This document shows, in pieces, positions 4,160-60,127 of a stretch of DNA of 64,000 bases. The stretch spans positions 13,945-77,944 of the forward strand of contig CAZHIA010000002.1 of the NCBI GenBank assembly GCA_964532425.1, given 5' to 3'. Every line of letters begins with the position of its first letter. Position 1 is the first letter of the stretch. The notes under the pieces are model-generated. The model did no database searches, was not told the origin of the DNA, and saw nothing but the letters and a program-made list of their open reading frames with translations. Source of the DNA: an uncultured Candidatus Saccharibacteria bacterium (GTDB lineage: Bacteria > Patescibacteriota > Doudnabacteria > UBA920). Both the position numbers and the translations under genes were made by a program.

Positions 4160-6091
4160 ATGAATCTCTCTTCGCTTTCCTCAGAACTCAATATGTCCAT
4201 TCAAGAGCTTCGCTCGCAGGCGCGTGCGAAGGGATTTTTCATTTCCGACAAAGCGAACAAAATTGATAACTACCTTGCCAAAAAAATAGTAGAAGCCTTG
4301 CGGCCGGACGTTGCAGCCCGCCACCAGCCCCAGACCAATGGCAAGCCGAAAAAAGTTAAACTCCCCACTTTTATTAAAGTCCGCGACTTTGCCGTACTCT
4401 TAGAACTTCCCGTTACGAGTGTCATCAAAGTCCTCATCCAGAACGGAGTCATGGCCACCATTAACGAAGAGATCGATTTCGACACTGCCGCGATTGTGGC
4501 CGGCGATCTTGGATTCGAAGTGGAAAGCCAGGCTGACCAGTCTACCCAGGAAATCGGTCTTGGGTACTTGCAAGAAGTACTCAAAGCTGAAAAAGAAGAA
4601 GACCTGCGGCCCCGGCCGCCAATCGTCGCTATTATGGGACACGTCGACCACGGTAAGACCACCCTGCTCGACACCATCCGCAAGACCAATGTGGCGGCAG
4701 GGGAGTCCGGCGGCATTACCCAGCACATTGGTGCCTACCAGGTTAAAAAGAACGGCAAGACCATTACCTTTTTGGATACTCCGGGCCATGAAGCGTTTTC
4801 GGAAATGCGCGCCCGCGGCGCCAACGTGACCGACTTAATCGTATTGGTCGTAGCAGCCGATGACGGCGTGCGCCCGCAAACCCTGGAAGTCATCAATCGC
4901 GCCAAGTTTACCAACACGCCGATGATCGTGGCCATCAACAAGATCGACAAGCCCGAAGCCAACATCATGCGCGTCAAGCAGGAACTGGCCGGCCAGGGCG
5001 TGCTCACCGAAGAATGGGGTGGCAAAACCATCGCAGTGGAAATCTCCGCCAAGCAAGGCATTGGCCTCGACAATCTTTTGGAAATGATCCTGCTTACTGC
5101 CGAAATTGAGAACTTCCGCGCCAATCCACACGGCAAGACCATCGGTACTATCATCGAATCGAAAATGACCCATGGTAAGGGCTCGACTGCGTCCGTTATA
5201 GTCCAGAATGGCACACTCCGCGTGGGAGATATAATTGTAGCCGGCGCAGCCTATGGACGCATTCGCTCGCTCGATGACGAAAACGGCCGCAAGCTTAAGG
5301 AAGCCGGGCCGTCCTGTGCTGCGCAGATCTCGGGTTTTTCCGAAGTTCCGCAAGCGGGCGACATTCTTCAGACCATGCCAACTCTGGATGAAGCTAAACA
5401 AATCGCCATTGCCGCCCAGAAACGCGCCCAGAGCCACCGTTTGCATGCACGCCAAATCCTGCAAGGAGACGCGGAAAGCAAAACCTTGAATTTGATTATC
5501 AAAGCCGATGTCGCCGGTTCTTTGGAAGCCATTAAACAGTCCATTGGAAAACTGAAGAACGACGAAGTAAAGATCAATATCTTAAGCGAAGGCGTTGGTG
5601 AAGTGAACGAGTCGGATATTATGCTGGCAGACAACTCCAAAGCAAGCATTATTGCCTTCCGAAGCAAAGTAAACCCCAAAGCCGCAAATCTCGCCAAGCA
5701 AAAAAATACACTGGTCGACACGTATGATGTCATTTACGAGCTGATCGAAGATGTTACCTCAGCGGTCATTAAGATGTTCACGCCGGAATTGGAAAAGATC
5801 AGTTATGGCACGGCCAAGGTTCTTGCCATTTTCCGCACGGAAAAGAATCAAATGATCATCGGCGGCCGGGTCGAACAGGGCGAACTCCGCAAGAACGGGC
5901 AGATTGGCATCAACCGCGACGGCGCCGAAGTTGGCCGCGGAGAAATTTTAGAACTTCAGCACAGCAAGGTAGTCACCAAGAATGTCCAAAGCGGTGAAGA
6001 ATTCGGCATCAAGATTAAGACCAACGTGAAAATCAAGGAAGGGGACACTCTGGAGAGCTTCGAAGAAAAGATCAAGCAGAAGACACTGTAA
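4160..6091 (+). CDS. infB: translation initiation factor IF-2 (short-N-terminus form)
   Basis: GTP-binding motifs [27 protein letters not shown]; C-terminal IF-2 domains. Confidence 0.9.
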
Positions 6092-9070: not shown

Positions 9071-9157
9071 GCCCGGGTGGCGAAATTGGCAGACGCACTA
9101 CCTTGAGGTGGTAGCGGCCGCAAGGCTGTGGGAGTTCGAATCTCCCCTCGGGCACCA
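9071..9157 (+). tRNA. tRNA-Leu (anticodon GAG), CCA encoded
   Basis: Cloverleaf with long variable arm; anticodon loop TTGAGGT; GTTCGAATC T-arm. Confidence 0.85.
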
Positions 9158-9158
9158 T

Positions 9159-9192
9159 GAAAAATACTCTACCTAAAGGTAGAGTATTTTTC
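9159..9192 (+). terminator. intrinsic terminator after tRNA-Leu
   Basis: aaaaatactctacc taaa ggtagagtattttt. Confidence 0.6.
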
Positions 9193-9266
9193 ATGGTGAG
9201 CAGAGGTTTAATAATTATACTTCCGGCTGTATTGAAAACATCATTTCATATCGCTATACTAGATTC

Positions 9267-9593
9267 ATGTCCACTACATTCAAAAGAACCACAGAAAACT
9301 TCATCTGCGGCAATTGCAAGAAAAAAGTCAAAGGCAACGGGTATACCAACCACTGCCCGTTTTGCCTCTGGAGCAAGCACGTGGACAACCATCCGGGCGA
9401 CCGAGCCAACACCTGCGGCGGCATGATGGAGCCGGTTAGTTATACCCTTGAAAAGAACCAATATCACATCATTTTCCGCTGCCAAAAGTGTGACACCTTC
9501 AAACGTAATAAATTTCAGGAAGGCGATAACTTCGAAGCTCTCTTAAAACTTGCCCAACAAACTGCGGATAAATTTTCAAAAAACACCCCTTGA
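9267..9593 (+). CDS. RNHCP-domain zinc-ribbon protein
   Basis: Y-T-N-H-C-P-F-C motif plus additional CxxC pairs, typical of RNHCP domain. Confidence 0.65.
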   Translation: MSTTFKRTTENFICGNCKKKVKGNGYTNHCPFCLWSKHVDNHPGDRANTCGGMMEPVSYTLEKNQYHIIFRCQKCDTFKRNKFQEGDNFEALLKLAQQTADKFSKNTP

Positions 9594-9611
9594 TGAACGA
9601 GGGGTGTTTTA
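9583..9611. terminator. bidirectional intrinsic terminator
   Basis: aaaaacacccctTGAtgaacgaggggtgtttt; overlaps stop of RNHCP gene. Confidence 0.6.
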
Positions 9612-9623
9612 ATGTACCGCAAG

Positions 9624-9893
9624 CTATTTAATCGTTCCTGGTCGGGTAGAGGGGGAAAGCTGTGGGGGAGCAGATTGCGGGGATGTTCGGTGGAGCATGA
9701 AATATATAACCATCAAAAATCCAACCAGAATACCAATAGCCAGACCGATCTCGATTTTAGAAACGCTCCGCCGGCCAGTGGAAACAGGAAAAACAGTCTG
9801 TTGAATTTGCGGCTGATTGGCCGATCCGGTAAGGATCGACTGGGAATTCCTAAAGTCAGCTGCATTCTCGTCGAATTCCTGGTTAGTGTCCAT
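9624..9893 (-). CDS. hypothetical small membrane protein downstream of pilin
   Basis: 89 aa, one TM helix; 4-nt gap to pilin gene. Confidence 0.4.
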   Translation of the reverse strand: MDTNQEFDENAADFRNSQSILTGSANQPQIQQTVFPVSTGRRSVSKIEIGLAIGILVGFLMVIYFMLHRTSPQSAPPQLSPSTRPGTIK

Positions 9894-9896
9894 ACG

Positions 9897-10499
9897 TTAG
9901 TTGCCCCCAACACAAAGAGTATAATTAGAATTCCAATGCCAACTGGCATTGGCACCAGTATATTTGCCCAAACAATAATTTACTAATGGCCCCAACTCAT
10001 ACCCGCCTGGATAAATGCCGTTAGGATTTGAGAATCTGGAAACATTGGAGTTATCCTCAAAAGCAGAAACCCCAACACCATAATACTGACCATTGCTCGT
10101 GGAAGGATTGTTGTAATAATAGTAACGATTGCTGTCATTGACCGGATCCTTGGGCATCTGGCTCATATATGGCTTGAGGGTATCAGCTAGCCAGCACCAG
10201 CGGTTGCACCAGCCGCATCCAGCCTGGGCAGCCACCACCGCCCCACCGTTAACAACAGGTCCGCCGCACGTGCCCGACCAATCCACGCTGTATGCATCGT
10301 CTGAAAGAGGATAGGTGCCATTATGGTCAGCCGCGTACAATTCCAGAGCCTTCGAGATTTGAGTAATATCCGTTGCACGCTTGGCATCACGGGCTTTCAC
10401 ACGGGCGCTGTTTAAAGCCACCATGACGGTACTCGCAAGTAAACCGATGATGGATATAACCACGAGCAGCTCGATGAGTGTAAAACCCTTTTGGCTCAT
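9897..10499 (-). CDS. type IV pilin (prepilin-type N-terminal cleavage/methylation domain)
   Basis: MSQKGFTLIELLVVISIIGLLA class III signal; Cys pairs in C-terminal part. Confidence 0.8.
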   Translation of the reverse strand: MSQKGFTLIELLVVISIIGLLASTVMVALNSARVKARDAKRATDITQISKALELYAADHNGTYPLSDDAYSVDWSGTCGGPVVNGGAVVAAQAGCGWCNRWCWLADTLKPYMSQMPKDPVNDSNRYYYYNNPSTSNGQYYGVGVSAFEDNSNVSRFSNPNGIYPGGYELGPLVNYCLGKYTGANASWHWNSNYTLCVGGN

Positions 10500-10673
10500 A
10501 AAAATTAGCCTGACATTCTATAAGCCATTATACCATGTAAGACAGTAATAACCGCATAATGTATAGAGTTTTTTACACCGGCCAAACAGTATATAGAGAG
10601 CTATAAAGTGGTTAAATATTACCTTGCTTCAAGTTGAAACGTAAGCCTAATTCCTATGTAATCTTGATCGATA

Positions 10674-10701
10674 TAGAAAAAACATTCCGTAAAGGGATGT
10701 T
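10674..10701 (-). terminator. intrinsic terminator at end of minus-strand tRNA cluster transcript
   Basis: minus strand reads acatccctttacggaatgt + ttttttc. Confidence 0.45.
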
Positions 10702-10709
10702 CTTTCATA

Positions 10710-11130
10710 TGGAGCGGCTAAGGGGAATTCCGCCTTGCGGCCCTGCAGGGCCGCTTCGTTGTCCAGGACAGGGGTACCCCTAAAATGCCTTCGGCATTTT
10801 TGGGGAATCCCCTGGGCAGCGCTGAAGTGCTATCCGTAGCACTTCAGCGGCGTTCGCTGCATCCCGCTCTGCTGAGCAGGATTAGCTCACTGCTGCCCGT
10901 TCGATTCCCCTTGCGCCGTATCAAAAAAGAAATTGCCCCACCCACAAGGGGTGAGGCACTTTCTTTTGGAGCGGCTAAGGGGAATTCATCGCGCTCGGCT
11001 TCTGCTGAAGCCTCACTTGTCCATGGGTTGCCAAAATGCTGCGCTAGCTCGCATTTTGGGTTGCTCGACTGCTACTTTTGCTGCAGCAAGAGTCTTGTCT
11101 CACTTCAACCCAGTTCGATTCCCCTTAGCC
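10710..11130. repeat. array of tRNA-Gly 3'-end fragments in alternating orientation
   Basis: TGGAGCGGCTAAGGGGAAT at 10710-10728 and 10967-10985 (minus sense); GTTCGATTCCCCTT(A/G)(G/C)CC at 10899-10917 and 11112-11130 (plus sense). GC-rich hairpin-laden spacers between them. Confidence 0.7.
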
Positions 11131-11180
11131 TATAATCTATCCAAAGAAAAATACTCCAGACAAGCTGGAGTATTTTTCTT

Positions 11181-11254
11181 TGGAGCGGCTAAGGGGAATC
11201 GAACCCCTATCCTCTCCATGGCAAGGAGAAGTTCTACCATTGAACCATAGCCGC
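11181..11254 (-). tRNA. tRNA-Gly (anticodon GCC), CCA encoded
   Basis: revcomp GCGGCTATGGTTCAATGGTAGAACTTCTCCTTGCCATGGAGAG...GGGGTTCGATTCCCCTTAGCCGCTCCA. Confidence 0.85.
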
Positions 11255-11317
11255 GTAACGTATAGATATTATACCAAATCTCTAAAATTTTACCAGCCTC
11301 ATTCCATGACCGCACGC

Positions 11318-11498
11318 TCGTTCGTGGCATGCCATGTACCTGATCGAAGCGAATGAAGGTGGCAGTGAACCATTCAGCTTTCGGCCTCAGGTACACTGCA
11401 CTCACCACTCACTTCGTTTAAGTACATAGCATTTCTTAAATCGATTGCTTCGGTATGGTTCGTGGCATGCCATGAACCCGAACGAAGTGAGTGGTTCG
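11318..11498. repeat. ~45-bp imperfect direct repeats (GTTCGTGGCATGCCATG(t/a)ACC...) abutting tRNA-Phe
   Basis: R1 11318-11362, R2 11454-11498; inverted CGAAGTGAGTGG segment between. Confidence 0.45.
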
Positions 11499-11573
11499 TG
11501 GTGCCGGAGGTCAGAATCGAACTGACGACACGACGCTCTTCAGGCGTCTGCTCTACCACTGAGCTACTCCGGC
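11499..11573 (-). tRNA. tRNA-Phe (anticodon GAA), CCA encoded
   Basis: revcomp GCCGGAGTAGCTCAGTGGTAGAGCAGACGCCTGAAGAGCGTC...GTTCGATTCTGACCTCCGGCACCA. Confidence 0.85.
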
Positions 11574-11763
11574 AAAATAAGATGAAAATTTGAGGGTGCA
11601 ACTCCAATTGCCCTAATGCTTACACTGCGCAGGGCACTACTCTACTGTCACTAAGCGGAAAACACTCGTTTATAATCACTTAAAGGAGAAGGGTCCTTGC
11701 ACTTCGAAGCCTTGGCGAAGAAGTGGTGGGCGATACAGGAATTTCACCCCGCACCATTTCTCG

Positions 11764-11840
11764 TGGTGGGTCCGACAGGATTCGAACCTGTGACCTCCTC
11801 GGTGTAAACGAGGCGCTCTAACCAGCTGAGCTACGAACCC
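11764..11840 (-). tRNA. tRNA-Val (anticodon TAC), CCA encoded
   Basis: revcomp GGGTTCGTAGCTCAGCTGGTTAGAGCGCCTCGTTTACACCGAGG...GGTTCGAATCCTGTCGGACCCACCA. Confidence 0.85.
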
Positions 11841-11896
11841 GTTTTACATATAATATCAAGCCCGAAGATATTTCACCAGAAATGGTGCAGGGCGGG

Positions 11897-11934
11897 CCTG
11901 TGACCTCCTCGGTGTAAACGAGGCGCTCTAACCA
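11897..11934 (-). pseudogene. 38-nt tRNA-Val fragment (duplicate of T-stem/anticodon-arm/D-loop segment)
   Basis: Identical to 11787-11824; flanks do not form acceptor or T arms. Confidence 0.6.
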
Positions 11935-12105
11935 TCCGCCTCCGCCAACAGGCGGATGGCGGATAACCGCCCAGGAGTCACAAAGGTTAGCTCAAGTACT
12001 ATAACAAAAACTGCCTTTCCTTGCAAGAGCCTATCCAGCCAAAATATGGCAAAAAAACCGCAATTGCGCTACACTAAGCGTAAGGTAAATCTTAATTGAA
12101 ACCAA

Positions 12106-12972
12106 ATGATCACCCAAGAGATGCTCAGCTATATCCGGGAGCAGCGCGCTGCCGGCCATAGCGATGAAGAAATCAGACAGCAACTTATAGCCTCCGGCTG
12201 GCAGCAGGCTGACATTGAGGAGGGTTTAAAAGCCCCGACAGGATCTACCGCCAGTTTCTCCGGTTCTGCCTCAGGTCCACTGCCTGGACTAGGAGCCTTG
12301 TTTTCTGAAGCCTGGCGCCTTTATAACCAAAGGTTTTGGCCTTTGATCGGCACCTACCTGGCTCCCATGCTGGTATTCTTTGGGGTCGGACTCCTCGCTG
12401 GCGCAGGTTTTGTCCTCAATAAAGCCACTGGAAATGTAATCAGCGGACCTATCGCGATCGTAATATTACTCATTGCCGTTGTTGCTGCCATTTATATCGG
12501 AGTCTGGGGGCAGGCCGCCATGCTTATAGCCATCCGGGACAGCAGCGAAAATATCCCAGTCAAGGAAGCATACAAGCGAGCACGTCCATTCATTGGCGCA
12601 TATTTTTCCACCTCGCTTCTGGCTGGACTGGCAGTCCTCGGAGGCTTTATCCTCTTCATTATCCCAGGCATCATTTTTGCCTTGTGGTTCTGCTTCGCCA
12701 CCTATGCCGTGGTCACCGATAACGTCTCCAATACTGCAGCATTAAAGTTCAGCAAATCCATAGTTAAAGGGCAGATGGGAGCGATCTTCTGGAGATTCCT
12801 GTTCATTGGCGTTCTCACTATCATTTTCAGCTGGCTCGTTACCGCCGCAGGCACTTCCATTCACAACGAACAGGTCGGGAGTCTACTCAATTCGATTTTC
12901 TCACTGTTCTGGTCTCCGTTGGCTGCGGTCTATGGCTTCCTTCTGTTCCAGCACGCGAAGAGCAGAAAATAA
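12106..12972 (+). CDS. hypothetical polytopic membrane protein
   Basis: 288 aa, multiple hydrophobic segments; ends at terminator. Confidence 0.5.
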   Translation: MITQEMLSYIREQRAAGHSDEEIRQQLIASGWQQADIEEGLKAPTGSTASFSGSASGPLPGLGALFSEAWRLYNQRFWPLIGTYLAPMLVFFGVGLLAGAGFVLNKATGNVISGPIAIVILLIAVVAAIYIGVWGQAAMLIAIRDSSENIPVKEAYKRARPFIGAYFSTSLLAGLAVLGGFILFIIPGIIFALWFCFATYAVVTDNVSNTAALKFSKSIVKGQMGAIFWRFLFIGVLTIIFSWLVTAAGTSIHNEQVGSLLNSIFSLFWSPLAAVYGFLLFQHAKSRK

Positions 12973-12985
12973 CTCGCTCATTAAC

Positions 12986-13016
12986 AGCCTGGGAAGAAAT
13001 TTCCAGGCTGTTTTTA
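12986..13016 (+). terminator. intrinsic terminator
   Basis: cagcctgg gaagaaattt ccaggctg + ttttt. Confidence 0.6.
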
Positions 13017-13093
13017 AATGGCTTAAATAAGCCATTTGTAAGCCAAAAGAAATTTTTTTTCTTTTATATAAGCAATATTTTGGTAAAACTGTC

Positions 13094-13122
13094 TTGAAAA
13101 AGAATCCAAAAAGAGGTATAAT
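13094..13122 (+). promoter_or_regulatory. consensus-like promoter TTGAAA-17-TATAAT
   Basis: -35 13094-13099, -10 13117-13122; followed at 13133-13155 by hairpin+T6 (agtgc tatttg gcact cttttttc). Confidence 0.4.
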
Positions 13123-13317
13123 TAATACAGAAAGTGCTATTTGGCACTCTTTTTTCATGAGAGGCTCGTAGCAACTTTCTGGTCTGTTAAATAGTATCCT
13201 TGCGTTCCTTAAAAACGAGGATAAAAACTAGCTTTCCTTAAGGTTTTGGCGTCTTCCGCGAAAGCGGGGGGCATAAAACCAGGGGAAGCCAGGGGAGAAA
13301 GGAGTTTTGATTAAATA

Positions 13318-14043
13318 ATGAAAGCTCTTTCACTCCTTCGGTCTGCCATCGATCACGGCACCATTGCTTCTGCAATAGCCTTGGTCTCGCTGGTTTCCGT
13401 GATTTATCCGGAAATCGGTTTAGCTTCTAGCTTACAGACCGGAGAGGAAAATGCTCTAGTTGTTGAAATCAAAGATCCCGCGTCCGTTCTCACACCAAAA
13501 CCTCAAGAAAAACTGGCGGAAATAACCGCCACCACTTCTGATACCAGTCTTACCTACGACCAGGTCATTAATAATGACCCGTTGGTAAACAACCTCCGCG
13601 AATACCTGAATTCCTACGGCTCGCCATTGGCTGTCTATGCCGACCAAATCGTGCAGCAGCCCAATTGGCAGAAAGCCTTGGCCATCAGTTTCGTGGAGAG
13701 CAATATGGGCAAATACTGCGCTGATAATAACTGCAGCGGCATCGGTGTCGCCCCGGGACATCCGTCCTGGCGCAAGTATGACACCAAGCTCGATTGGTTC
13801 AAGGACCTCTGCCAACTGCTCGATAAGCCCATCTACCAAAAGTACAACACTTTTGAAAAGATGAAAGGAGTTTATGTGCAGCCGGGAAGTGCTCAATGGG
13901 TTAATGGCGCAAAGAAAATTTACGCCGAACTCATGACGGTAGAGGAGCAATCCAACCAACAGCGCGTTGCCATGCAGCAACCGCACACGGTCACAATCGC
14001 AGCCGTAGAACAAGAAGCCCAACTTGCGGTTTTGAAGAAATAA
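13318..14043 (+). CDS. hypothetical secreted/membrane-anchored protein
   Basis: AAAGGAG SD; N-terminal hydrophobic signal-like segment; 241 aa. Confidence 0.5.
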   Translation: MKALSLLRSAIDHGTIASAIALVSLVSVIYPEIGLASSLQTGEENALVVEIKDPASVLTPKPQEKLAEITATTSDTSLTYDQVINNDPLVNNLREYLNSYGSPLAVYADQIVQQPNWQKALAISFVESNMGKYCADNNCSGIGVAPGHPSWRKYDTKLDWFKDLCQLLDKPIYQKYNTFEKMKGVYVQPGSAQWVNGAKKIYAELMTVEEQSNQQRVAMQQPHTVTIAAVEQEAQLAVLKK

Positions 14044-14049
14044 AAAAAA

Positions 14050-14082
14050 TCCCTCCGGTAACCCCGGAGGGATTTTTGTTTT
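14050..14082 (+). terminator. intrinsic terminator
   Basis: tccctccgg taacc ccggaggga + tttttgtttt. Confidence 0.65.
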
Positions 14083-14170
14083 ACTAACCTTTGAATTAAC
14101 CTCTGGCTAATCTATCCACGAGAATACAAAATTAAAAATCCCTCTCAATAAGGGATGTGTGTCGAATAAT

Positions 14171-14258
14171 TGGTGCCCAGGGAGGGAATCGAACCCTCAA
14201 TCCCTTGCGGGCGACAGATTTTAAGTCTGTAGCGTATACCAGTTCCGCCACCTGGGCA
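14171..14258 (-). tRNA. tRNA-Leu (anticodon TAA), CCA encoded
   Basis: revcomp GCCCAGGTGGCGGAACTGGTATACGCTACAGACTTAAAATCTGT...long variable arm...GGGTTCGATTCCCTCCCTGGGCACCA. Confidence 0.85.
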
Positions 14259-14324
14259 ATAGAAATCCATCCAGACTTCGCAAAACCTTAGTTGGTGTTA
14301 GCCAGAAGAAGCCTTAGCGAAGCC

Positions 14325-14400
14325 TGGAGGTGCGGGCGGGATTTGCACCCGCGAATGGCGGTTTTGCAGACCGCAGTGTTAGCTACTTCACCACCGCACC
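14325..14400 (-). tRNA. tRNA-Cys (anticodon GCA), CCA encoded
   Basis: revcomp GGTGCGGTGGTGAAGTAGC...CGGTCTGCAAAACCG...GCGGGTGCAAATCCCGCCCGCACCTCCA. Confidence 0.8.
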
Positions 14401-32733: not shown

Positions 32734-32809
32734 GGGCGTATAGCTCAGTTGGTAGAGCGGACGTCTTATACACGTCTGGTCCTAGGTTCGAGTCCTAGTA
32801 CGCCCACCA
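32734..32809 (+). tRNA. tRNA with anticodon TAT (tRNA-Ile UAU, AUA-decoding), CCA encoded
   Basis: GGGCGTATAGCTCAGTTGGTAGAGCGGACGTCTTATACACGTCTGGTCCTAGGTTCGAGTCCTAGTACGCCCACCA; anticodon loop CTTATAC. Confidence 0.8.
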
Positions 32810-38599: not shown

Positions 38600-38658
38600 C
38601 TACAGATCAAAATCCATCTGTAGATATCTGTATTTCTACATCCATCTGCATATCTGTT
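38600..38658. repeat. word-built palindrome (CTACAGAT/ATCTGTAG words)
   Basis: ctacagatcaaaatccatctgtagatatctgtatttctacatccatctgcatatctgtt. Confidence 0.5.
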
Positions 38659-38664
38659 AACCAT

Positions 38665-38943
38665 ATGGACCAAGAAGACATCAAAGACCTGTTTGAAGAG
38701 AAGTACGAAGATCGCATCGGAATGAACTACCAGGAATGGCTGGAACAGGGACCGCAAAATGAAGCCGAAGCCTACGCCCGCCTGCAGGAAATTGACGACG
38801 AGCTGACCAGCACCTATGAAGAATGGTATGAAGCTGTCGGCGAAAAGAAAGACGAGATGGAAGAACACCGGGACCGGTTAAAAGCCGAGTATGATCTAAT
38901 CGAAGAATCGTTCGGACTTGAGGCAGGGGATAAGGGATGGTAA
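38665..38943 (+). CDS. hypothetical acidic protein
   Basis: 92 aa, Glu/Asp-rich, helical-looking. Confidence 0.45.
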   Translation: MDQEDIKDLFEEKYEDRIGMNYQEWLEQGPQNEAEAYARLQEIDDELTSTYEEWYEAVGEKKDEMEEHRDRLKAEYDLIEESFGLEAGDKGW

Positions 38944-38947
38944 GTTA

Positions 38948-39050
38948 AATGACAAAAATTAAAAAAATGACATAATTGACAAAATGTAAACACCCGACTG
39001 CTATCTATTTTTTGTCAATTTTGTTCAATTATGTCATTTATGTCAATTAC
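38948..39050. repeat. TTGACAAAA-family ~100-bp inverted-repeat element, copy A
   Basis: aaatgacaaaaattaaaaaaatgacataattgacaaaatg ... ttttttgtcaattttgttcaattatgtcatttatgtcaatt. Confidence 0.65.
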
Positions 39051-39053
39051 CCT

Positions 39054-39719
39054 ATGCTCTACGTTTTAGCTACTCCAATTGGAAACTTAAAAGATATCAC
39101 CCTTCGCGCAATTGAAACCTTGAAAAGTTGTGATTTTGTGATTGCCGAAAATCCCAGCTATACCAAGCGCTTGCTGGACCACTTTGAGATCGGCCAAAAA
39201 AAGACCATGCAATTCGCCGAGCATAATGAGCAGAAAGTGCTGCCAGGACTTATTGGCTTGCTGGAAAAGCAGAACGGCTGCCTGCTGACTGATGCGGGTA
39301 CGCCGGGAATTTCCGATCCAGGCTTCCGGCTCGTGCGGGAATGCGTGCAGGAAAATATCCAAGTAGTTCCCATCCCCGGGGCTAGCGCAGCCATTACCGC
39401 GCTGTGTGCATCAGGCCTGCCGACCGACAAATTCCTGTTCTTCGGCTTTTTACCCAAAACCGAGATCAAAGTCATGAAAGCCATGGTCGAAGCCAAGACC
39501 ATCGAAGCCACGGCAGTGTTCTACGAATCCCCTGAACGTATTATAAAAACGATTAGTTTTGTAAAAAAAGCCTACCCCGGATGCAATGTCGTCATTGCGC
39601 GAGAGCTGACTAAAATGCATGAAGAGTTTATCCGCGGAACAGCCACAGAAGTCTTGGGAATTCTCCAGAAAAAAGGTAAAGTGAAGGGGGAGATTGTGGT
39701 GCTCGTTTCATTTAAATGA
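39054..39719 (+). CDS. rsmI: 16S rRNA (cytidine1402-2'-O)-methyltransferase
   Basis: LYVLATPIGNLKDITLRAIETLKSCDFVIAEN tetrapyrrole-methylase-family RsmI N-terminus; ORF-track start 38976 lies inside repeat. Confidence 0.8.
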   Translation: MLYVLATPIGNLKDITLRAIETLKSCDFVIAENPSYTKRLLDHFEIGQKKTMQFAEHNEQKVLPGLIGLLEKQNGCLLTDAGTPGISDPGFRLVRECVQENIQVVPIPGASAAITALCASGLPTDKFLFFGFLPKTEIKVMKAMVEAKTIEATAVFYESPERIIKTISFVKKAYPGCNVVIARELTKMHEEFIRGTATEVLGILQKKGKVKGEIVVLVSFK

Positions 39720-40158
39720 TTTAAATGATTGACACGATTTAAATGAATAGCACAAACAAATGGACCACAATGATTTAACGAAACGAACAAAAAATTTCGC
39801 TGTTAAGATCATCGAGCTGGCAAAATATCTAGAAGAGTATTGTGGCAACACTGGGAGAAAAATAGGAGATCAATTACTACGATCAGGTACGAGAGTTTAT
39901 GCCAACTATAGGGCCGCTTGCAGATGCAAGTCGGCAAAAGATTTTATCTCTAAAATAGGAACAGTGGTAGAAGAATCTGATGAATCACTAGGGTGGCTAG
40001 AGTTAATTGACGCAGCTAATTTAATTCCTCATTATATGCTTGAAGAACTGCTAAGAGAAACAAATGAGATCACTGCTATAATGAACGCCTCAAAAACAAC
40101 TGCGATCAGAAATGTAAAGCGTGACAGACCTTAATCATGTCAATCATTTAAATCATTT
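39714..40158. mobile_element. 445-bp cassette with perfect 21-bp terminal inverted repeats carrying a 4HB gene
   Basis: AAATGATTTAAATGATTGACA (39714-39734) and exact reverse complement TGTCAATCATTTAAATCATTT (40138-40158); left TIR overlaps rsmI stop codon. Confidence 0.45.
39760..40134 (+). CDS. four-helix-bundle protein (23S rRNA intervening-sequence protein family)
   Basis: FAVKIIELAKYL...GDQLLRSGTRVYANYRAA...AKDFISKIGTVVEESDESLGWLELI matches family pattern. Confidence 0.7.
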   Translation: MDHNDLTKRTKNFAVKIIELAKYLEEYCGNTGRKIGDQLLRSGTRVYANYRAACRCKSAKDFISKIGTVVEESDESLGWLELIDAANLIPHYMLEELLRETNEITAIMNASKTTAIRNVKRDRP

Positions 40159-40176
40159 AATTCTTGTCAATCTTTT

Positions 40177-40887
40177 ATGTCCGGACATTCCAAATGGGCC
40201 CAAATCAAACGAACAAAAGGCGTACTCGACCAGAAGCGCGGGCTTTTGTTTTCCAAACTTTCGAAAAAGATCAGTATTGCGGTCAAGGAAGGCGGCAGCC
40301 CGGACCCGGGTGTTAATTACAAACTGAAAAGTGCTATTGAATACGCCAAAGGCCAGGGGATGCCGAACGATAATATTGAACGGGCGATCAAGAACACAGC
40401 CAATGCCGGCGAGATCAAAGAAGTGGCCTACGAAGGTTACGGCCCGTACGGTACCGCTTTTTTGGTGGAAGCAGCCACTGACAACCCGAATCGCACCACA
40501 AATAACGTCAAGCATATTTTTTCCAAACATGGAGGTAATATGGGCGCCCAAGGCTCTGTAGCCTGGCAGTTCACCACCAAAGGACAAATTCTTGTTGAAC
40601 GTGACGAAAAGATTTCTGATATCGAAATGGCAGCCATCGACGCCGGAGCTGACGATGTACGCGAATCGGCGGAAGGTCTGGAAGTGTATACTGCACCGAA
40701 CGACCTGATCAAGGTTAAAGAAGCGCTCATTGCAGCCGGGGCTAAAGTAGCCCAGGCCGATATTATCAAAGAATCCAGCCAGGGTACTGACCTCACCGAA
40801 GACCAAAAACCGAAGGTTGACGCTCTGTTTGCCGAGCTCGAGAATGATGAGGATGTGATCGCCGTCCATACGAGCGCTAACCTTTAA
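40177..40887 (+). CDS. yebC: YebC/PmpR-family DNA-binding transcriptional regulator
   Basis: MSGHSKWAQIKRTKG N-terminus and full-length family similarity. Confidence 0.85.
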   Translation: MSGHSKWAQIKRTKGVLDQKRGLLFSKLSKKISIAVKEGGSPDPGVNYKLKSAIEYAKGQGMPNDNIERAIKNTANAGEIKEVAYEGYGPYGTAFLVEAATDNPNRTTNNVKHIFSKHGGNMGAQGSVAWQFTTKGQILVERDEKISDIEMAAIDAGADDVRESAEGLEVYTAPNDLIKVKEALIAAGAKVAQADIIKESSQGTDLTEDQKPKVDALFAELENDEDVIAVHTSANL

Positions 40888-40977: not shown

Positions 40978-41493
40978 ATGAACATTCTTGGCATCGACCC
41001 AGGGACCGCAACAACCGGATATGGCGTGATTACCCCCACCAAGCGGATGGGGGAGTTTGGGTTAGTTGATTTCGGAGTCGTGGAAACCGATAAGCACCTG
41101 ACCGATGCCGAGCGGCTCGCCATGCTGGCTGAAGATTTGGAAATTTTGATCAAAAAATACAAACCTGCCTGCGTAGGCGTGGAAAAATTATACTTTGAGA
41201 CCAACCAGAAAACAGCCATGACCGTGTCCCAAGCCAGGGGAGTTGTACTGCTCACCGCGCAGCGCGCTATGATTCCTATTTTAGAATTCACACCGCTTCA
41301 AGTAAAAAATTTCATTTGCGGGTACGGCAAGGCGGAAAAGAAACAGGTGCAATTTATCATACAAAGAACTTTTAAACTGAAAATAGCTCCCAAGCCGGAT
41401 GACGCCGCGGATGCGCTGGCGATTGCGCTCTATGCGGGACACATGTTTGCAAAAAAAGAACTGTTTGACCCCATACAGAAGAAGCGTGTATAA
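40978..41493 (+). CDS. ruvC: crossover junction endodeoxyribonuclease RuvC
   Basis: ILGIDPGTATTGYGV..., catalytic D/E residues, DAADALAIA C-terminal motif. Confidence 0.85.
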   Translation: MNILGIDPGTATTGYGVITPTKRMGEFGLVDFGVVETDKHLTDAERLAMLAEDLEILIKKYKPACVGVEKLYFETNQKTAMTVSQARGVVLLTAQRAMIPILEFTPLQVKNFICGYGKAEKKQVQFIIQRTFKLKIAPKPDDAADALAIALYAGHMFAKKELFDPIQKKRV

Positions 41494-43374: not shown

Positions 43375-46230
43375 ATGAAAATCTACAATTACGAAACTCG
43401 GCCTGCCGTAAAATCACGGGCCAAAAGGCATTTTTTTCACTTTCCAAAATTCCTGCCGAATAATTTTCGAGGGTGGATGACACTCATTGTTCGCATCGCT
43501 GCTGTTGGAATTGTGGTCGCCGCGGCATTATTCCTGTATTACAGCCGAGGATTACCCGATCCAAACAAGCTTCTTGAGCGGAATGTTCCGGAATCTACCA
43601 AAATCCTCGCCCGCGACGGCAGTCTGTTGTATGAGATCCATGGCGAAATTAAACGCACCCAGGTAACACTGGACCAGATCTCTCCGTTCCTGCCCCAAGC
43701 CACCATAGCCATTGAAGACAAGGATTTCTACCGCCACAAGGGTATTTCAGTAACCGGTATAGCCCGCTCTGCCTTGATAGACTTGATCACGCTGCATAAA
43801 TCCCAAGGTGCCAGTACCATTACCCAACAACTGGTCAAGAACGCGATTCTCACCAAAGACAAGTCTTGGGACCGCAAGATCCGCGAAGCCATCCTCGCTG
43901 TTGCACTTGATGCCCGCTACTCGAAAAATGAGATTCTCCAGATGTACCTGAATGAGATTCCCTACGGCCGAAATGCCTATGGAGTGGAGGCCGCCGCGCA
44001 ATCCTATTTCGGCAAGCCGGCCAAGGACCTGGATTTGGCGGAAAGCGCTTACCTAGCTTCCCTCCCGCAAGCGACAACCTACTACAACCCGTACGGATCC
44101 CACCGTGACGCCCTTGATGCGCGCAAGAACACCGTGCTGACCAAAATGCGTGAACAAGGATACATTACCGCGGACCAGGAACAAAAAGCCAAGGCTGAGA
44201 AAGTCGACTTCAAACAGACAACGACCGGCATTATTGCTCCACACTTTGTCATGTACGTCCAGGATTATCTTGCCGAACGTTATGGTGAAAAAACCCTCGA
44301 GGAGGGTGGTTTGAAAGTAACCACCACACTGGATCCCAAATTGCAGCAAATTGCCGAACAGGCGGTAAAAGACAATATGGACAAGGATGCCACCAAGTAT
44401 AACGCGCACAATGCAGCACTGGTAGCGATAGACCCCAAAACCGGGCAAATTTTGGCTATGGTGGGAAGCAAGGACTACTTCGGCGATCCAGAGCCGGCCG
44501 GTTGCACCCCGGGGAAAAATTGCTTATTCGAACCAAACTTTAATGTCGCTGATTCCGAACGCCAACCCGGTTCTAGTTTTAAACCTTATGTCTATGTAAC
44601 TGCCTTCAAAAAAGATTTCAAATATTCCCCCGCATCCCTGCTCATGGATGTCACGACTGACTTTGGTACCTATGGCGGCAAAGATTACACCCCGCACAAC
44701 TATAACGGACAAAGCTACGGGCCGGTATCCATGCGTAAAGCCCTGGCCGGCAGCTTGAACGTTCCGGCTGTCAAAACTTTGGCGTTGGTCGGCGTCGACA
44801 ACGCCACACAAACCGCACACGACCTTGGTATCACCTCGCCGCTACAGGATTGCGGATTATCCCTCGTGCTGGGTGGATGCGAGGTCAAATTAGTTGACCA
44901 TGTCAGCGCTTTTTCTGCCATTGCCAACGAGGGTTTGCGCAACGATAAAACCGCTATTTTAAAAGTGGAGGATCGCAACGGAAAAGCTTTGGAAGAATAC
45001 CAGGACAACCCACACCAAGTACTCGATCCACAGGCGGCATATGAGCTAATCAGCATCATGACCGATAACAATGCTCGCAGTTATATCTTCGGCTCCAATT
45101 CGCCGCTTATTCTGCCTGATCGCGTCGTAGCTGCTAAGACCGGTACTACCCAGAACTGGCACGATGGCTGGACTGTGGGCTTCACCCCGTCTTTAGCTGC
45201 AGGCGTCTGGGCGGGCAACAACGACGGCACCCTGCTCAAAAAGGGAGCGGATGGTGTGTTTGTGGCTGCTCCGATCTGGAATGAATTCATGAAGAATGCC
45301 CTCAAAGGAACCCCAGCCGAAGAATTCAAAGTGCCTGATGGGATCCAAAAAGTCACGGTAGATGAAGTCTCAGGAAAACTGCCTACTCAGTTCACTCCAT
45401 CAACCAAAGTTGAAACATTCGCCAGTTATTCGGTACCGACCGATTACGACCCGGTACACATTACGGTCGCCATGGATTCCCAAACCAACCTGCCGGCTGA
45501 TTCTTCTACGCCGCCGGACCGCATCGTAAACAAAATTTATACGGTCTTCCATAGCGAGCGGCCGAATAGCCCGAATTGGGAAGATCCAGTCGTCGCCTGG
45601 GCCCAGGCTAATGGCTATGAGTATCCCACCGGGACCATCACCGTGCCCCCGCCACAACCGAGCAATGGCGGGGATAGTGGTGTAACAACGGACATTGTTT
45701 CCCCGAACGACGGATCATTCATTTCTGTGTTCCCATTCCAATTGGTTGCAGTTGCTGATTCTCCCAACACCATAGCCCGACTCGATCTGTCCATTGATGG
45801 GCAATTTTACAAGACTGTTACCGGGCAGCCTTACACCTTTACTATTGATAAGCAGTTGCCAGACGGCCCGCACACCCTGGCTATCCGGGCCACGGACAAA
45901 TCCGGCTATACGAACGACACCAGCATTACCATCACGGTCACCACTACCAAACCCGCTTTGAACCTTACCGAGCCATCAGGAACCATTACCGGTTTTCCCA
46001 CTACACTGACCGCAGAGAGCAACAATTTGTATAGCCAGGTTATGTTCTACTACCAGCCGGATAAAGGCCAGCCAAAACTGCTCGGGCAAGCCTCCAATGT
46101 CAGCCACTTCGGCGACACCTATCAATACCAACTGCTTTGGTCCGAACGCCCGGCACCGGGTAACTACCGAGTGTATGCGCAGACTGACCAAGGAGTGACA
46201 TCGTCGAAAGTAAAAGTGACAGTTCCGTAA
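43375..46230 (+). CDS. class A penicillin-binding protein (transglycosylase + transpeptidase) with C-terminal Ig-like domains
   Basis: GT51 motifs (EDKDFYRHKG, QGASTITQQL), transpeptidase SSFKP, KTGTT; N-terminal TM anchor. Confidence 0.9.
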   Translation: MKIYNYETRPAVKSRAKRHFFHFPKFLPNNFRGWMTLIVRIAAVGIVVAAALFLYYSRGLPDPNKLLERNVPESTKILARDGSLLYEIHGEIKRTQVTLDQISPFLPQATIAIEDKDFYRHKGISVTGIARSALIDLITLHKSQGASTITQQLVKNAILTKDKSWDRKIREAILAVALDARYSKNEILQMYLNEIPYGRNAYGVEAAAQSYFGKPAKDLDLAESAYLASLPQATTYYNPYGSHRDALDARKNTVLTKMREQGYITADQEQKAKAEKVDFKQTTTGIIAPHFVMYVQDYLAERYGEKTLEEGGLKVTTTLDPKLQQIAEQAVKDNMDKDATKYNAHNAALVAIDPKTGQILAMVGSKDYFGDPEPAGCTPGKNCLFEPNFNVADSERQPGSSFKPYVYVTAFKKDFKYSPASLLMDVTTDFGTYGGKDYTPHNYNGQSYGPVSMRKALAGSLNVPAVKTLALVGVDNATQTAHDLGITSPLQDCGLSLVLGGCEVKLVDHVSAFSAIANEGLRNDKTAILKVEDRNGKALEEYQDNPHQVLDPQAAYELISIMTDNNARSYIFGSNSPLILPDRVVAAKTGTTQNWHDGWTVGFTPSLAAGVWAGNNDGTLLKKGADGVFVAAPIWNEFMKNALKGTPAEEFKVPDGIQKVTVDEVSGKLPTQFTPSTKVETFASYSVPTDYDPVHITVAMDSQTNLPADSSTPPDRIVNKIYTVFHSERPNSPNWEDPVVAWAQANGYEYPTGTITVPPPQPSNGGDSGVTTDIVSPNDGSFISVFPFQLVAVADSPNTIARLDLSIDGQFYKTVTGQPYTFTIDKQLPDGPHTLAIRATDKSGYTNDTSITITVTTTKPALNLTEPSGTITGFPTTLTAESNNLYSQVMFYYQPDKGQPKLLGQASNVSHFGDTYQYQLLWSERPAPGNYRVYAQTDQGVTSSKVKVTVP

Positions 46231-46335
46231 TTAATTGACAAAAATGACAAAATTGATCAAAATTGACAAAATTATACTGCAATCCTGTTCTCCATTTTTG
46301 TCAATTTTGTCAATTTTTTAAATTTTGTTCAATTC
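46231..46335. repeat. TTGACAAAA-family inverted-repeat element, copy B
   Basis: aattgacaaaaatgacaaaattgatcaaaattgacaaaatt ... atttttgtcaattttgtcaattttttaaattttgttcaatt. Confidence 0.7.
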
Positions 46336-60030: not shown

Positions 60031-60127
60031 TAATTGACAAAATTGATATAATTGACAAAAATGAGCAAAAATTTGGGCCCATTAATTTTGTCAATTTTGT
60101 TCAATTTTTTAAATTTTGTTCAATTAC
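60031..60127. repeat. TTGACAAAA-family inverted-repeat element, copy C
   Basis: taattgacaaaattgatataattgacaaaaatgagcaaaaattt ggg ccc attaattttgtcaattttgttcaattttttaaattttgttcaattac; right arm near-identical to copy B right arm. Confidence 0.7.

Follow-up and report, generated by a model that had tools for sequence, protein, structure and literature searches.

A 64-kb stretch of contig CAZHIA010000002.1 from an uncultured Candidatus Saccharibacteria bacterium (the window, to which all coordinates refer) carries between rsmI and yebC a 445-bp segment that is closed by inverted repeats and encodes a four-helix-bundle (4HB) protein of the kind named after intervening sequences (IVSs) of 23S rRNA. 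We believe, with a probability of about 0.6, that this segment is a copy of a widespread family of palindromic gene cassettes of the rRNA-IVS type, lying here in the spacer of an mRNA operon, with arms that pair into an RNA stem and are the probable binding site of the pentameric 4HB protein. To our knowledge, the proteins variously called 23S-rRNA-IVS, S23p or 4HB proteins have been recognised since 1993 and are very common, and no function is known for them beyond that of Avd in diversity-generating retroelements (DGRs). What the present analysis adds is that in nearly all cases the 4HB gene is accompanied by one constant cis-architecture, i.e. two inverted five-repeat arrays with a lineage-dependent unit, in sense orientation within host operons.

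The 21-nt sequence AAATGATTTAAATGATTGACA at 39714-39734 recurs as its exact reverse complement at 40138-40158, and these are the sole two matches in the window when up to three mismatches are allowed; no match was obtained in 100 dinucleotide-preserving shuffles, and a chance origin of the inverted repeat was rejected on these shuffle tests. The initial annotation of this stretch had described the pair as perfect terminal inverted repeats (TIRs), the left one running over the rsmI stop codon (39717-39719) and the right one ending 18 nt before the yebC ATG, with a 4HB gene in between and ruvC beyond yebC. Its coordinates proved correct and the pair unique in the window, and the gene assignments are borne out by matches to PF05635, TIGR02436 and TIGR00096. 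The 'extra partial copies' that it noticed near the ends are also present, and can be described more exactly as the outer and inner units of five-unit arrays of 9 bp: each arm of the cassette consists of five tandem units, ATTTAAATG or ATTGACAnG, and the pairing between the arms lengthens to 28 nt (96%, one mismatch). The rsmI stop codon, TGA, falls inside the left arm at the junction of units 1 and 2, and the right arm stops 5 nt short of the yebC ATG (40177); the spacer is thus wholly occupied by the cassette, from whose left arm rsmI takes its stop codon.

The insertion status of the cassette was assessed by aligning the rsmI ends and junctions of the window with those of the loci of its closest YebC homologues (L208, L209 and L210/L211). 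In L208 (YebC 88% identical) yebC follows rsmI after 29 nt, and in L210/L211 (86%) the rsmI|yebC spacer is 71 nt long and contains an unrelated small hairpin; there is no 4HB gene in either. L209 (88%) has a different 4HB gene at exactly the same point, its product being 52% identical to that of the window and its arms being made of the 8-bp units AAATTAAC, AAATTCAC and AAATTTAC. The native rsmI end, ...TCA TTT AAA (Ser-Phe-Lys), was found with TTT/TTC AAA variants in the alignment of the window, L208, L209 and L210, and since none of the four genomes departs from it further, the first unit of the left arm, which is identical with it, is host sequence. The cassettes of the window and L209 both start directly after this native end, and both provide the stop codon. 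Comparison of the window with L006 gives 79% identity for YebC and 66% for the 4HB protein at a different site, upstream of rsmI, while the closest homologue of the window 4HB protein (71%) lies between dnaK and dnaJ in another genome (L003). Since two relatives have nothing in this spacer and a third has a different cassette there, and the closest cassettes are in other operons, the cassette was inserted, and was gained independently of host descent. The empty rsmI|yebC junctions that the initial annotation had proposed to look for in relatives therefore exist, and the arrangement is not universal, whereas confinement of the 21-mer to this place without empty alleles, or universal rsmI-4HB-yebC synteny, would have spoken against its proposal.

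The same comparison bears on the idea that the rsmI-yebC operon has long been passing down, by vertical descent, a regulatory palindrome such as an operator or attenuator, which encloses a small gene by chance. The spacer is filled exactly, and L209 has a 4HB gene at the same spot, as this idea would have it; but the palindrome is absent from two equally close relatives, the L209 gene is 52% identical and has other units while homologues of 65-71% identity sit in unrelated operons, and the similarities of host and 4HB genes are incongruent. In view of these disagreeing histories and of the 71% homologue at dnaK/dnaJ, vertical inheritance of such a palindrome is so improbable that we regard it as ruled out. 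Separately, the empty spacer of L210 (3930-4000; 458-528 in L211) holds a small palindrome of a different make (tgcctatttatgggc...gcccataaatgggca), and more than one kind of palindromic insertion seems to be drawn to the rsmI|yebC spacer. Two further features of the relatives may be recorded here: RsmI of L209 (2793-3569) and L006 (5420-6238) is longer than window RsmI by 36-51 residues, which follow residue 45 or so and make for a length polymorphism within a housekeeping methyltransferase, and a gene with a PaaX_M domain lies near the locus in L208 (815-1318) and L006 (1-210), the L208 copy being also a weak Cas2 match.

Related cassettes occur in at least five other genomic contexts. Homologues with 65-71% identity to the window 4HB protein are found in unrelated spacers, each between inverted arrays of the same 9-bp units, and these arrays usually leave no part of the spacer free between the stop codon of the gene before and the start codon of the gene after. 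The contexts include the spacer between dnaK and the gene upstream of dnaJ (L003), a polysaccharide gene cluster (L004), the spacer between a 91-aa open reading frame (ORF) and rsmI (L006), the pilB|pilC spacer (L212), and a position upstream of a T2SSE ATPase gene. A metagenome scan provided 80 further 4HB loci (45-72% identity), and 86 homologue loci were scored against control windows taken from the same loci. Flanking tandem- and inverted-repeat scores were above the control windows in most of the 86 loci; the inverted-repeat score never exceeded 10 in the null, and amounts to 23 in the window and to about 30 in GATTGCC-type loci. The array units are 7-9 bp long across the homologues, a common core GATT/ATT being kept throughout, and their type follows the clade of the 4HB protein: 9-bp ATTGACAnn or ATTTAAAnn and 8-bp AATTAACA are the units of the clade from the candidate phyla radiation (CPR), and 7-bp GATTGCC, GATTTGC, GATTTTC or GATTTAA are those outside it.

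When in-phase cores per arm were counted in 42 non-redundant homologue loci (below 80% identity), the modal count was five, with mostly one or two in control windows; upstream arms have exactly five cores in 21 loci and four to seven in 33, and the upstream array is more constant than the downstream one. Both the 7-bp arrays (exactly five cores in 23 of 41 arms) and the 9-bp arrays (12 of 18 arms) have a median of five cores, and their spans differ (30 versus 37 nt); it is the unit count that is conserved, and not the array length. In the median, the upstream array ends 18 nt short of the start codon, and the downstream array sets in 6 nt past the stop codon. The orientation is also nearly fixed, since the cassette lies in sense in 24 of 25 non-redundant loci with co-directional neighbours (p = 1.5e-6), a count made by an ORF proxy that mis-scores the window, the inclusion of which would give 25 of 26. 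Furthermore, the same design, with GATTTAC, GATTTTA or GATTTTG arrays, is carried by complete replicons of cultured organisms, i.e. Planktothrix agardhii, Gloeocapsa PCC 7428 and Chlorohelix, and therefore it is not an artefact of metagenome assembly. The units are GATTTAC/GATTTTG at the Planktothrix agardhii gene NMG84_RS21765 and GATTTTA at GLO7428_RS25575 of Gloeocapsa PCC 7428.

These cultured-organism cassettes are all located inside defence-system operons. On the Planktothrix agardhii plasmid NZ_LR882964.1 (L222, 1712-2540) the order is DISARM drmD, 4HB gene, MmeI-type enzyme gene, and the cassette has two complete flanking hairpins that include CCCCAAT x6 and GTAAATC x4-6; the order DUF1156, 4HB, Swt1-family HEPN is shared by two phyla, on pGLO7428.03 of Gloeocapsa PCC 7428 (L223) and on a Chlorohelix plasmid (L224). 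In L152 (3878-4694) and L154 a 4HB cassette with GATTTAAG/GATTTTAG units stands between tRNA genes of a co-oriented cluster, a stable-RNA operon context that is intermediate between rRNA IVSs and mRNA operons; no rRNA context was seen at 20 related loci. One identical 4HB protein, P0041, was found on 21 contigs, always in the context pilB|4HB|pilC, and its interpretation as recent transposition was rejected, this being one stable locus sampled many times. A phage vector is unsupported, with no 4HB homologue in the phage collection searched and only two weak ones in IMG/VR.

The 4HB protein itself matches PF05635 with 46.2 bits (cut-off 33.8) and TIGR02436 ('23S rRNA intervening sequence protein') with 64.6 bits (cut-off 24), and its sequence alone detects 5,532 clusters (50% identity clustering, E <= 1e-3), of which about 1,300 have E <= 1e-10; 32 columns are invariant among 39 homologues, and the gene is therefore under selection. 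The AlphaFold2 model has four helices with a mean predicted local distance difference test (pLDDT) score of 94.9. Among solved structures 2RLD (BT_0352) was matched by sequence (E = 8e-21), and Foldseek retrieved 2RLD (TM-score 0.81-0.89) and 2GSC (Xcc0516; 0.78-0.82), as well as 4DWL and 8UB7. The entries 2RLD, 2GSC and 4DWL contain five chains each, and a pentamer has been stated for S23p-type relatives (PMC4990558) and for Avd (bioRxiv 10.1101/2023.10.23.563531); from these solved relatives we infer that the window protein would likewise be a homopentameric toroid.

The matches to 4DWL and 8UB7 raise the question of whether the gene is an orphan Avd, i.e. a DGR accessory protein to which the repeats are unrelated, all the more as Avd is a homologue of PF05635 proteins, the family found most often beside DGR reverse transcriptases (PMC10053308). 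The neighbours of the window gene, on the contrary, encode RsmI, YebC, RuvC and TyrRS (tyrS), with no adjoining reverse transcriptase (template and variable repeats were not searched for), and no reverse transcriptase stands beside the gene at any CPR-type locus. The closest match in both sequence and fold is the non-DGR protein 2RLD, Avd (4DWL; 8UB7 within a DGR ribonucleoprotein) being more distant. Because no reverse transcriptase adjoins, we do not take the gene for a DGR component, and an orphan Avd is a very improbable explanation.

The features of the region and of the gene-less hairpins described below are listed in Table 1. According to Rfam, the window has seven tRNA genes at 9071-14400 and 32734-32806, five of which form two minus-strand groups (11184-11840 and 14174-14400), and no rRNA genes or other family; in particular, no Rfam family covers the arms or the gene-less hairpins. 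No second 4HB gene is present in the window. An antisense ORF of 238 aa (40153-40869, minus strand) covers yebC almost entirely and is longer than it; it is almost certainly spurious, and it led the ORF-based assignment of neighbours astray.

Table 1. Coordinates of the cassette, its neighbouring genes and the gene-less hairpins in the window; right-arm units run from outer to inner.
Feature	Position	Strand	Description
rsmI	39054-39719	+	16S rRNA C1402 2'-O-methyltransferase; TIGR00096
Left arm	39710-39754	+	five tandem 9-bp units
Left-arm unit 1	39710	+	ATTTAAATG
Left-arm unit 2	39719	+	ATTTAAATG
Left-arm unit 3	39728	+	ATTGACACG
Left-arm unit 4	39737	+	ATTTAAATG
Left-arm unit 5	39746	+	AATAGCACA, degenerate
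4HB gene	39760-40134	+	124 aa; stop at 40132-40134; co-oriented with rsmI and yebC
Right arm	40127-40171	-	five 9-bp units
Right-arm unit 1 (outermost)	40171-40163	-	ATTGACAAG
Right-arm unit 2	40162-40154	-	AATTAAATG
Right-arm unit 3	40153-40145	-	ATTTAAATG
Right-arm unit 4	40144-40136	-	ATTGACATG
Right-arm unit 5 (innermost)	40135-40127	-	ATTAAGGTC, degenerate; overlaps 4HB stop codon
Predicted long-range RNA stem closing the cassette	39712-40160	+	39712-39739 with 40133-40160, 27/28 positions
yebC	40177-40887	+	ATG at 40177, 18 nt past the 21-mer
ruvC	40978-41493		downstream of yebC
H1	38946-39048	.	forward 9-bp array (AAATGACAA, AAATTAAAA, AAATGACAT, AATTGACAA), 25-nt loop, reverse array
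H2	46233-46334	.	five cores, loop ATACTGCAATCCTGTTCTCC, five cores
H3	60032-60125	.	five cores, loop TGGGCCCATT, five cores

Three further convergent array pairs without a gene, H1, H2 and H3, are present in the window, and all of the eight arrays returned by a stringent scan of the 64 kb belong to the four convergent pairs made up by these hairpins and the cassette. H1 occupies the spacer between a 92-aa ORF and rsmI, which is the spacer of the 4HB cassette in L006, and H2 occupies the spacer between the stop codon of a penicillin-binding-protein gene (46228-46230) and the ATG of the next gene (46340). Similar gene-less hairpins are found in other CPR genomes (L009, L031 and L036); the syntenic stretches of L208-L210 contain no arrays of the 9-bp type, and the hairpins therefore vary between lineages. 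The hairpin loops share a motif (T)ACTGC(A), in the form gACTGCt in H1, tACTGCa in H2 and L007 (~957-1030), tACTGCg in L009 (~820-900) and aACTGCa in L130 (upstream of the gene). As the cassette that carries the gene lacks this motif, the hairpins may not be simple deletion derivatives of it, and might represent an element or a small RNA in their own right. In L007 one 35-nt sequence (catgtcaatcattttccaccaaaggcggatctgcct) is present on both sides of the 4HB gene (~1010-1045 and 1461-1497), and its two copies could be a duplication from the entry of the gene into an existing hairpin, or a recombination scar. Outside the CPR, 9-bp units with a GATT core (GGATTGACA, GGATTTACA, GATTTAAAA, CGATTGAAA/CGATTGATA) make up hairpins or extended arrays, with no 4HB gene in the stretch examined, in L082 (~2080-2180 and ~4650-4750; Verrucomicrobia UBA1629), L067 (Poribacteria), L105/L108 (Chitinispirillales) and L027/L030/L102/L120 ('bacterium GMC4.concoct.297'). 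In a scan of genome contigs with the degenerate array pattern ATTKAMANRATTKAMANRATTKA, the matches listed were mostly due to chance or to unrelated AT-rich sequence; a few were gene-less hairpins, and no 4HB gene was among the at least 120 loci listed.

One may ask, then, whether the hairpins came first, as host or selfish intercistronic palindromes with their own conserved loop, and the 4HB gene is a secondary invader that spreads by gene conversion between arrays, a kind of homing without an endonuclease. Gene-less hairpins outnumber the gene-bearing copy three to one in the window, the loop motif common to H1, H2, L007, L009 and L130 is their own, an empty H1 fills the window spacer where L006 has its cassette, and complete hairpins lie directly beside the gene in L004, L007, L130 and L222. 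Their arms, on the other hand, are short (~45 bp) and about 80% alike between copies, which makes them poor substrates for homologous recombination; the units of the window hairpins (ATTGACAAA type) differ from those of the cassette (ATTTAAATG/ATTGACAnG), and the relatives' empty rsmI|yebC spacers hold no such hairpin. We regard this order of events as conceivable and rather doubtful.

The initial annotation had instead called the segment a MITE-like cassette, i.e. a non-autonomous miniature inverted-repeat transposable element (MITE). The repeat-bounded insertion carrying a 4HB gene stands, given the empty sites and the other contexts, while the MITE or non-autonomous label is not established. 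In a classical element of this kind a transposase encoded elsewhere would move the TIR-bounded DNA, with the 4HB gene as passive cargo, and the inverted repeats, the presence or absence of the cassette among relatives and the gene-less versions of ~100 bp in the same window are what one would expect; so are its size (445 bp) and the 21-28 nt of inverted repeat. As for copy number within the window, the 21-mer is unique in the 64 kb, three related and non-identical gene-less hairpins accompany it, and no transposase was seen. However, the target-site duplication that had been suggested as a mark of mobility did not appear on inspection by eye: no direct repeat flanks the junctions (GTTTC|...|CTTTT), in a single occupied/empty comparison whose boundaries are blurred by the host-coding unit 1. 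No transposase gene adjoins any of the ~90 loci examined, and the element encodes a conserved protein of 124 aa, whereas MITEs are defined by having no coding capacity. In addition, the repeats accompany one gene family across phyla and change their unit with the protein clade, which is unexpected for cargo, their number and not their length is held at five, and a sense orientation in 24 of 25 cassettes is not predicted for a passive DNA transposon. A MITE is thus an unlikely account of the segment. Recognition of the repeats by the 4HB protein itself, which the annotation had mentioned as an alternative, appears the more promising idea, because the arms have five cores with short and long units alike, and homopentamers are what the solved structures of relatives show.

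Returning to a palindromic cassette of the rRNA-IVS type, its way of working may be outlined as follows. A promoter and terminator scan of 38600-40500 gave five promoter-like sites (3.4 expected) and no terminators, and in a manual check none of the TTGACA words in the units was at sigma-70 spacing from a -10-like word. As the promoter signal is not above chance and the orientation is almost always sense, the cassette probably has no promoter of its own and would be expressed by read-through from the host operon, which would in turn account for an orientation that is sense almost without exception. Once transcribed, the arms are predicted to pair into a stem of ~28 bp, at whose base the stop codon of the gene before and the start codon of the gene after would be joined. 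This terminal stem is present in both the minimum-free-energy and the centroid folds; the RNA fold of the whole element is no more stable than that of shuffles (z = -1.14), and the terminal stem alone is noteworthy. It would be a plausible substrate of RNase III, as in rRNA IVSs, and the insertion would thus be cheap for the operon.

The five-fold arrays are, furthermore, the putative binding site of the homopentameric 4HB protein, with one GATT/ATT core per subunit. This suggestion is based on the conservation of the count rather than of the length, on the change of the unit with the protein clade, and on the greater constancy of the upstream array. Binding would serve autoregulation, or the maintenance and spread of the cassette and of gene-less hairpins with the same unit, or both. 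At the DNA level, movement would most likely occur by recombination into unit-like sequences or pre-existing gene-less hairpins, an entry route suggested by the point after the unit-like TCATTTAAA of rsmI that the cassettes of the window and L209 share, and by the cassette of L006 in the spacer where the window has the empty H1. Such movement is probably rare, because P0041 has the same neighbours on all of its 21 contigs. A broader proposal, which we put forward tentatively, as one possibility among others, is that the PF05635 pentamer reads five-fold GATT-core arrays, probably on single-stranded RNA or DNA, one unit per subunit, and that protein and arrays together make up an unrecognised class of selfish operon-spacer cassettes, which would include the ORF-bearing rRNA IVSs, the gene-less hairpins of the CPR and at least some cyanobacterial heptamer arrays, the protein being the cassette's own maintenance or mobility factor and not its cargo.

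Several observations weigh against an RNA stem bound by a pentamer. Arrays of near-identical units are complementary by construction, and the stem may be a by-product of this complementarity; complementarity within elements is higher than between elements for the 9-bp type (15.5 versus 10.3), with an excess also for GATTTGC, but is not higher for GATTGCC. The downstream array is absent in 8 of the 42 homologues, so a closing stem is not universal, and the gene-less hairpins of the window are just ~80% complementary. Five cores agree with a pentamer in number and in nothing else so far, the pentameric state being taken from relatives, and the type of the unit is confounded with host taxon and GC content. 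As to mobility, the constant neighbours of P0041 show no recent transposition, and neither a target-site duplication nor a mobility enzyme was identified at the loci examined.

For the five-fold arrays, the cassettes in mRNA spacers and the gene-less array hairpins no report was found in the searchable literature, which leaves out subscription journals, so that a prior description is possible. We take the cassette for an element of the IVS type that lies outside rRNA and is built on five-fold arrays, a design that appears general for the 4HB family. It links rRNA intervening sequences to elements in ordinary mRNA operons, tRNA clusters and defence-system operons, and identifies a family of array hairpins that shapes the intergenic spacers of streamlined CPR genomes. 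For a protein of 'function unknown' it offers a definite hypothesis, namely that a five-fold repeat is read by a pentamer, which can be tested in vitro with the cultured cyanobacterial proteins; every mechanistic step is inferred, and the thirty-year-old question of what 4HB proteins do is now directly testable.

Several known systems resemble parts of this picture. Short tandemly repeated repetitive (STRR) sequences of cyanobacteria, reportedly described by Mazel and colleagues in 1990, are said to be intergenic tandem heptamers with the units CCCCAGT, TTGGTCA and CAACAGT; the Planktothrix cassette, with its CCCCAAT heptamers beside GTAAATC, is similar in kind, but its heptamers are not identical to the published units, and no published link between STRRs and a 4HB gene was found in the searchable literature. 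TRAP on the trp leader RNA is a homo-oligomeric ring that binds one short single-stranded RNA repeat per subunit, with as many repeats as subunits, and provides a mechanistic analogy only, since its fold is unrelated and it reads 11 triplets as against 5 units of 7-9 nt here. The Correia/NEMIS elements of Neisseria, other bacterial MITEs, and palindromic repeats like REP/BIME sequences and the Rickettsia palindromic elements are small, repeat-bounded intergenic palindromes that are co-transcribed with their neighbours, the Correia elements being cut by RNase III, and H1-H3 resemble these most. Unlike them, one member in the window has a conserved protein gene inside; a target duplication, of TA or otherwise, was not seen, the arms are arrays of tandem 7-9-bp units rather than a unique terminal repeat, and no cognate transposase or RAYT-type enzyme was identified here.

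Avd (4DWL, 8UB7) has the homologous four-helix-bundle fold, and is described as forming a homopentameric barrel that binds a defined element of RNA (bioRxiv 10.1101/2023.10.23.563531). Its sequence identity to the window protein is about 11%, its RNA is not a five-fold tandem repeat, and the window gene has no reverse transcriptase beside it, template and variable repeats having been left out of that search. The nearest known system is the ORF-bearing IVS of 23S rRNA, which according to PMC4990558 (citing Ralph & McClelland 1993 and Afseth 1995) is known in Leptospira, Coxiella burnetii, Xanthomonas and Brucella; in CPR bacteria, insertions in 16S and 23S rRNA are also reported to contain PF05635 ORFs (PMC11270868). 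The Coxiella IVS has 428-444 nt, a terminal stem of 28 bp and an S23p ORF in sense. Two to three tandem heptamers GACAGAT immediately precede this ORF, and the stem is cleaved by RNase III at the first of the repeats (PMC4990558). The window cassette differs in lying between protein-coding genes of an mRNA operon rather than in an rRNA gene, where IVSs occupy helix 25 or 45 of 23S rRNA or lie in 16S rRNA, in having explicit five-unit arrays on both sides, and in its well conserved ORF, compared with the decaying one of Coxiella. On the other hand, the two share the protein family (S23p, PF05635), the size (445 nt in the window), terminal inverted repeats with a stem of ~28 bp, an ORF in sense to the host transcript and a patchy distribution; both have tandem repeats with a GA(T)GACA core upstream of the ORF, as GACAGAT rotates to GATGACA (compare GATTGACA in the window), and both have short gene-less forms, which for IVSs are the ~100-nt hairpins of Salmonella (PMC2672173).

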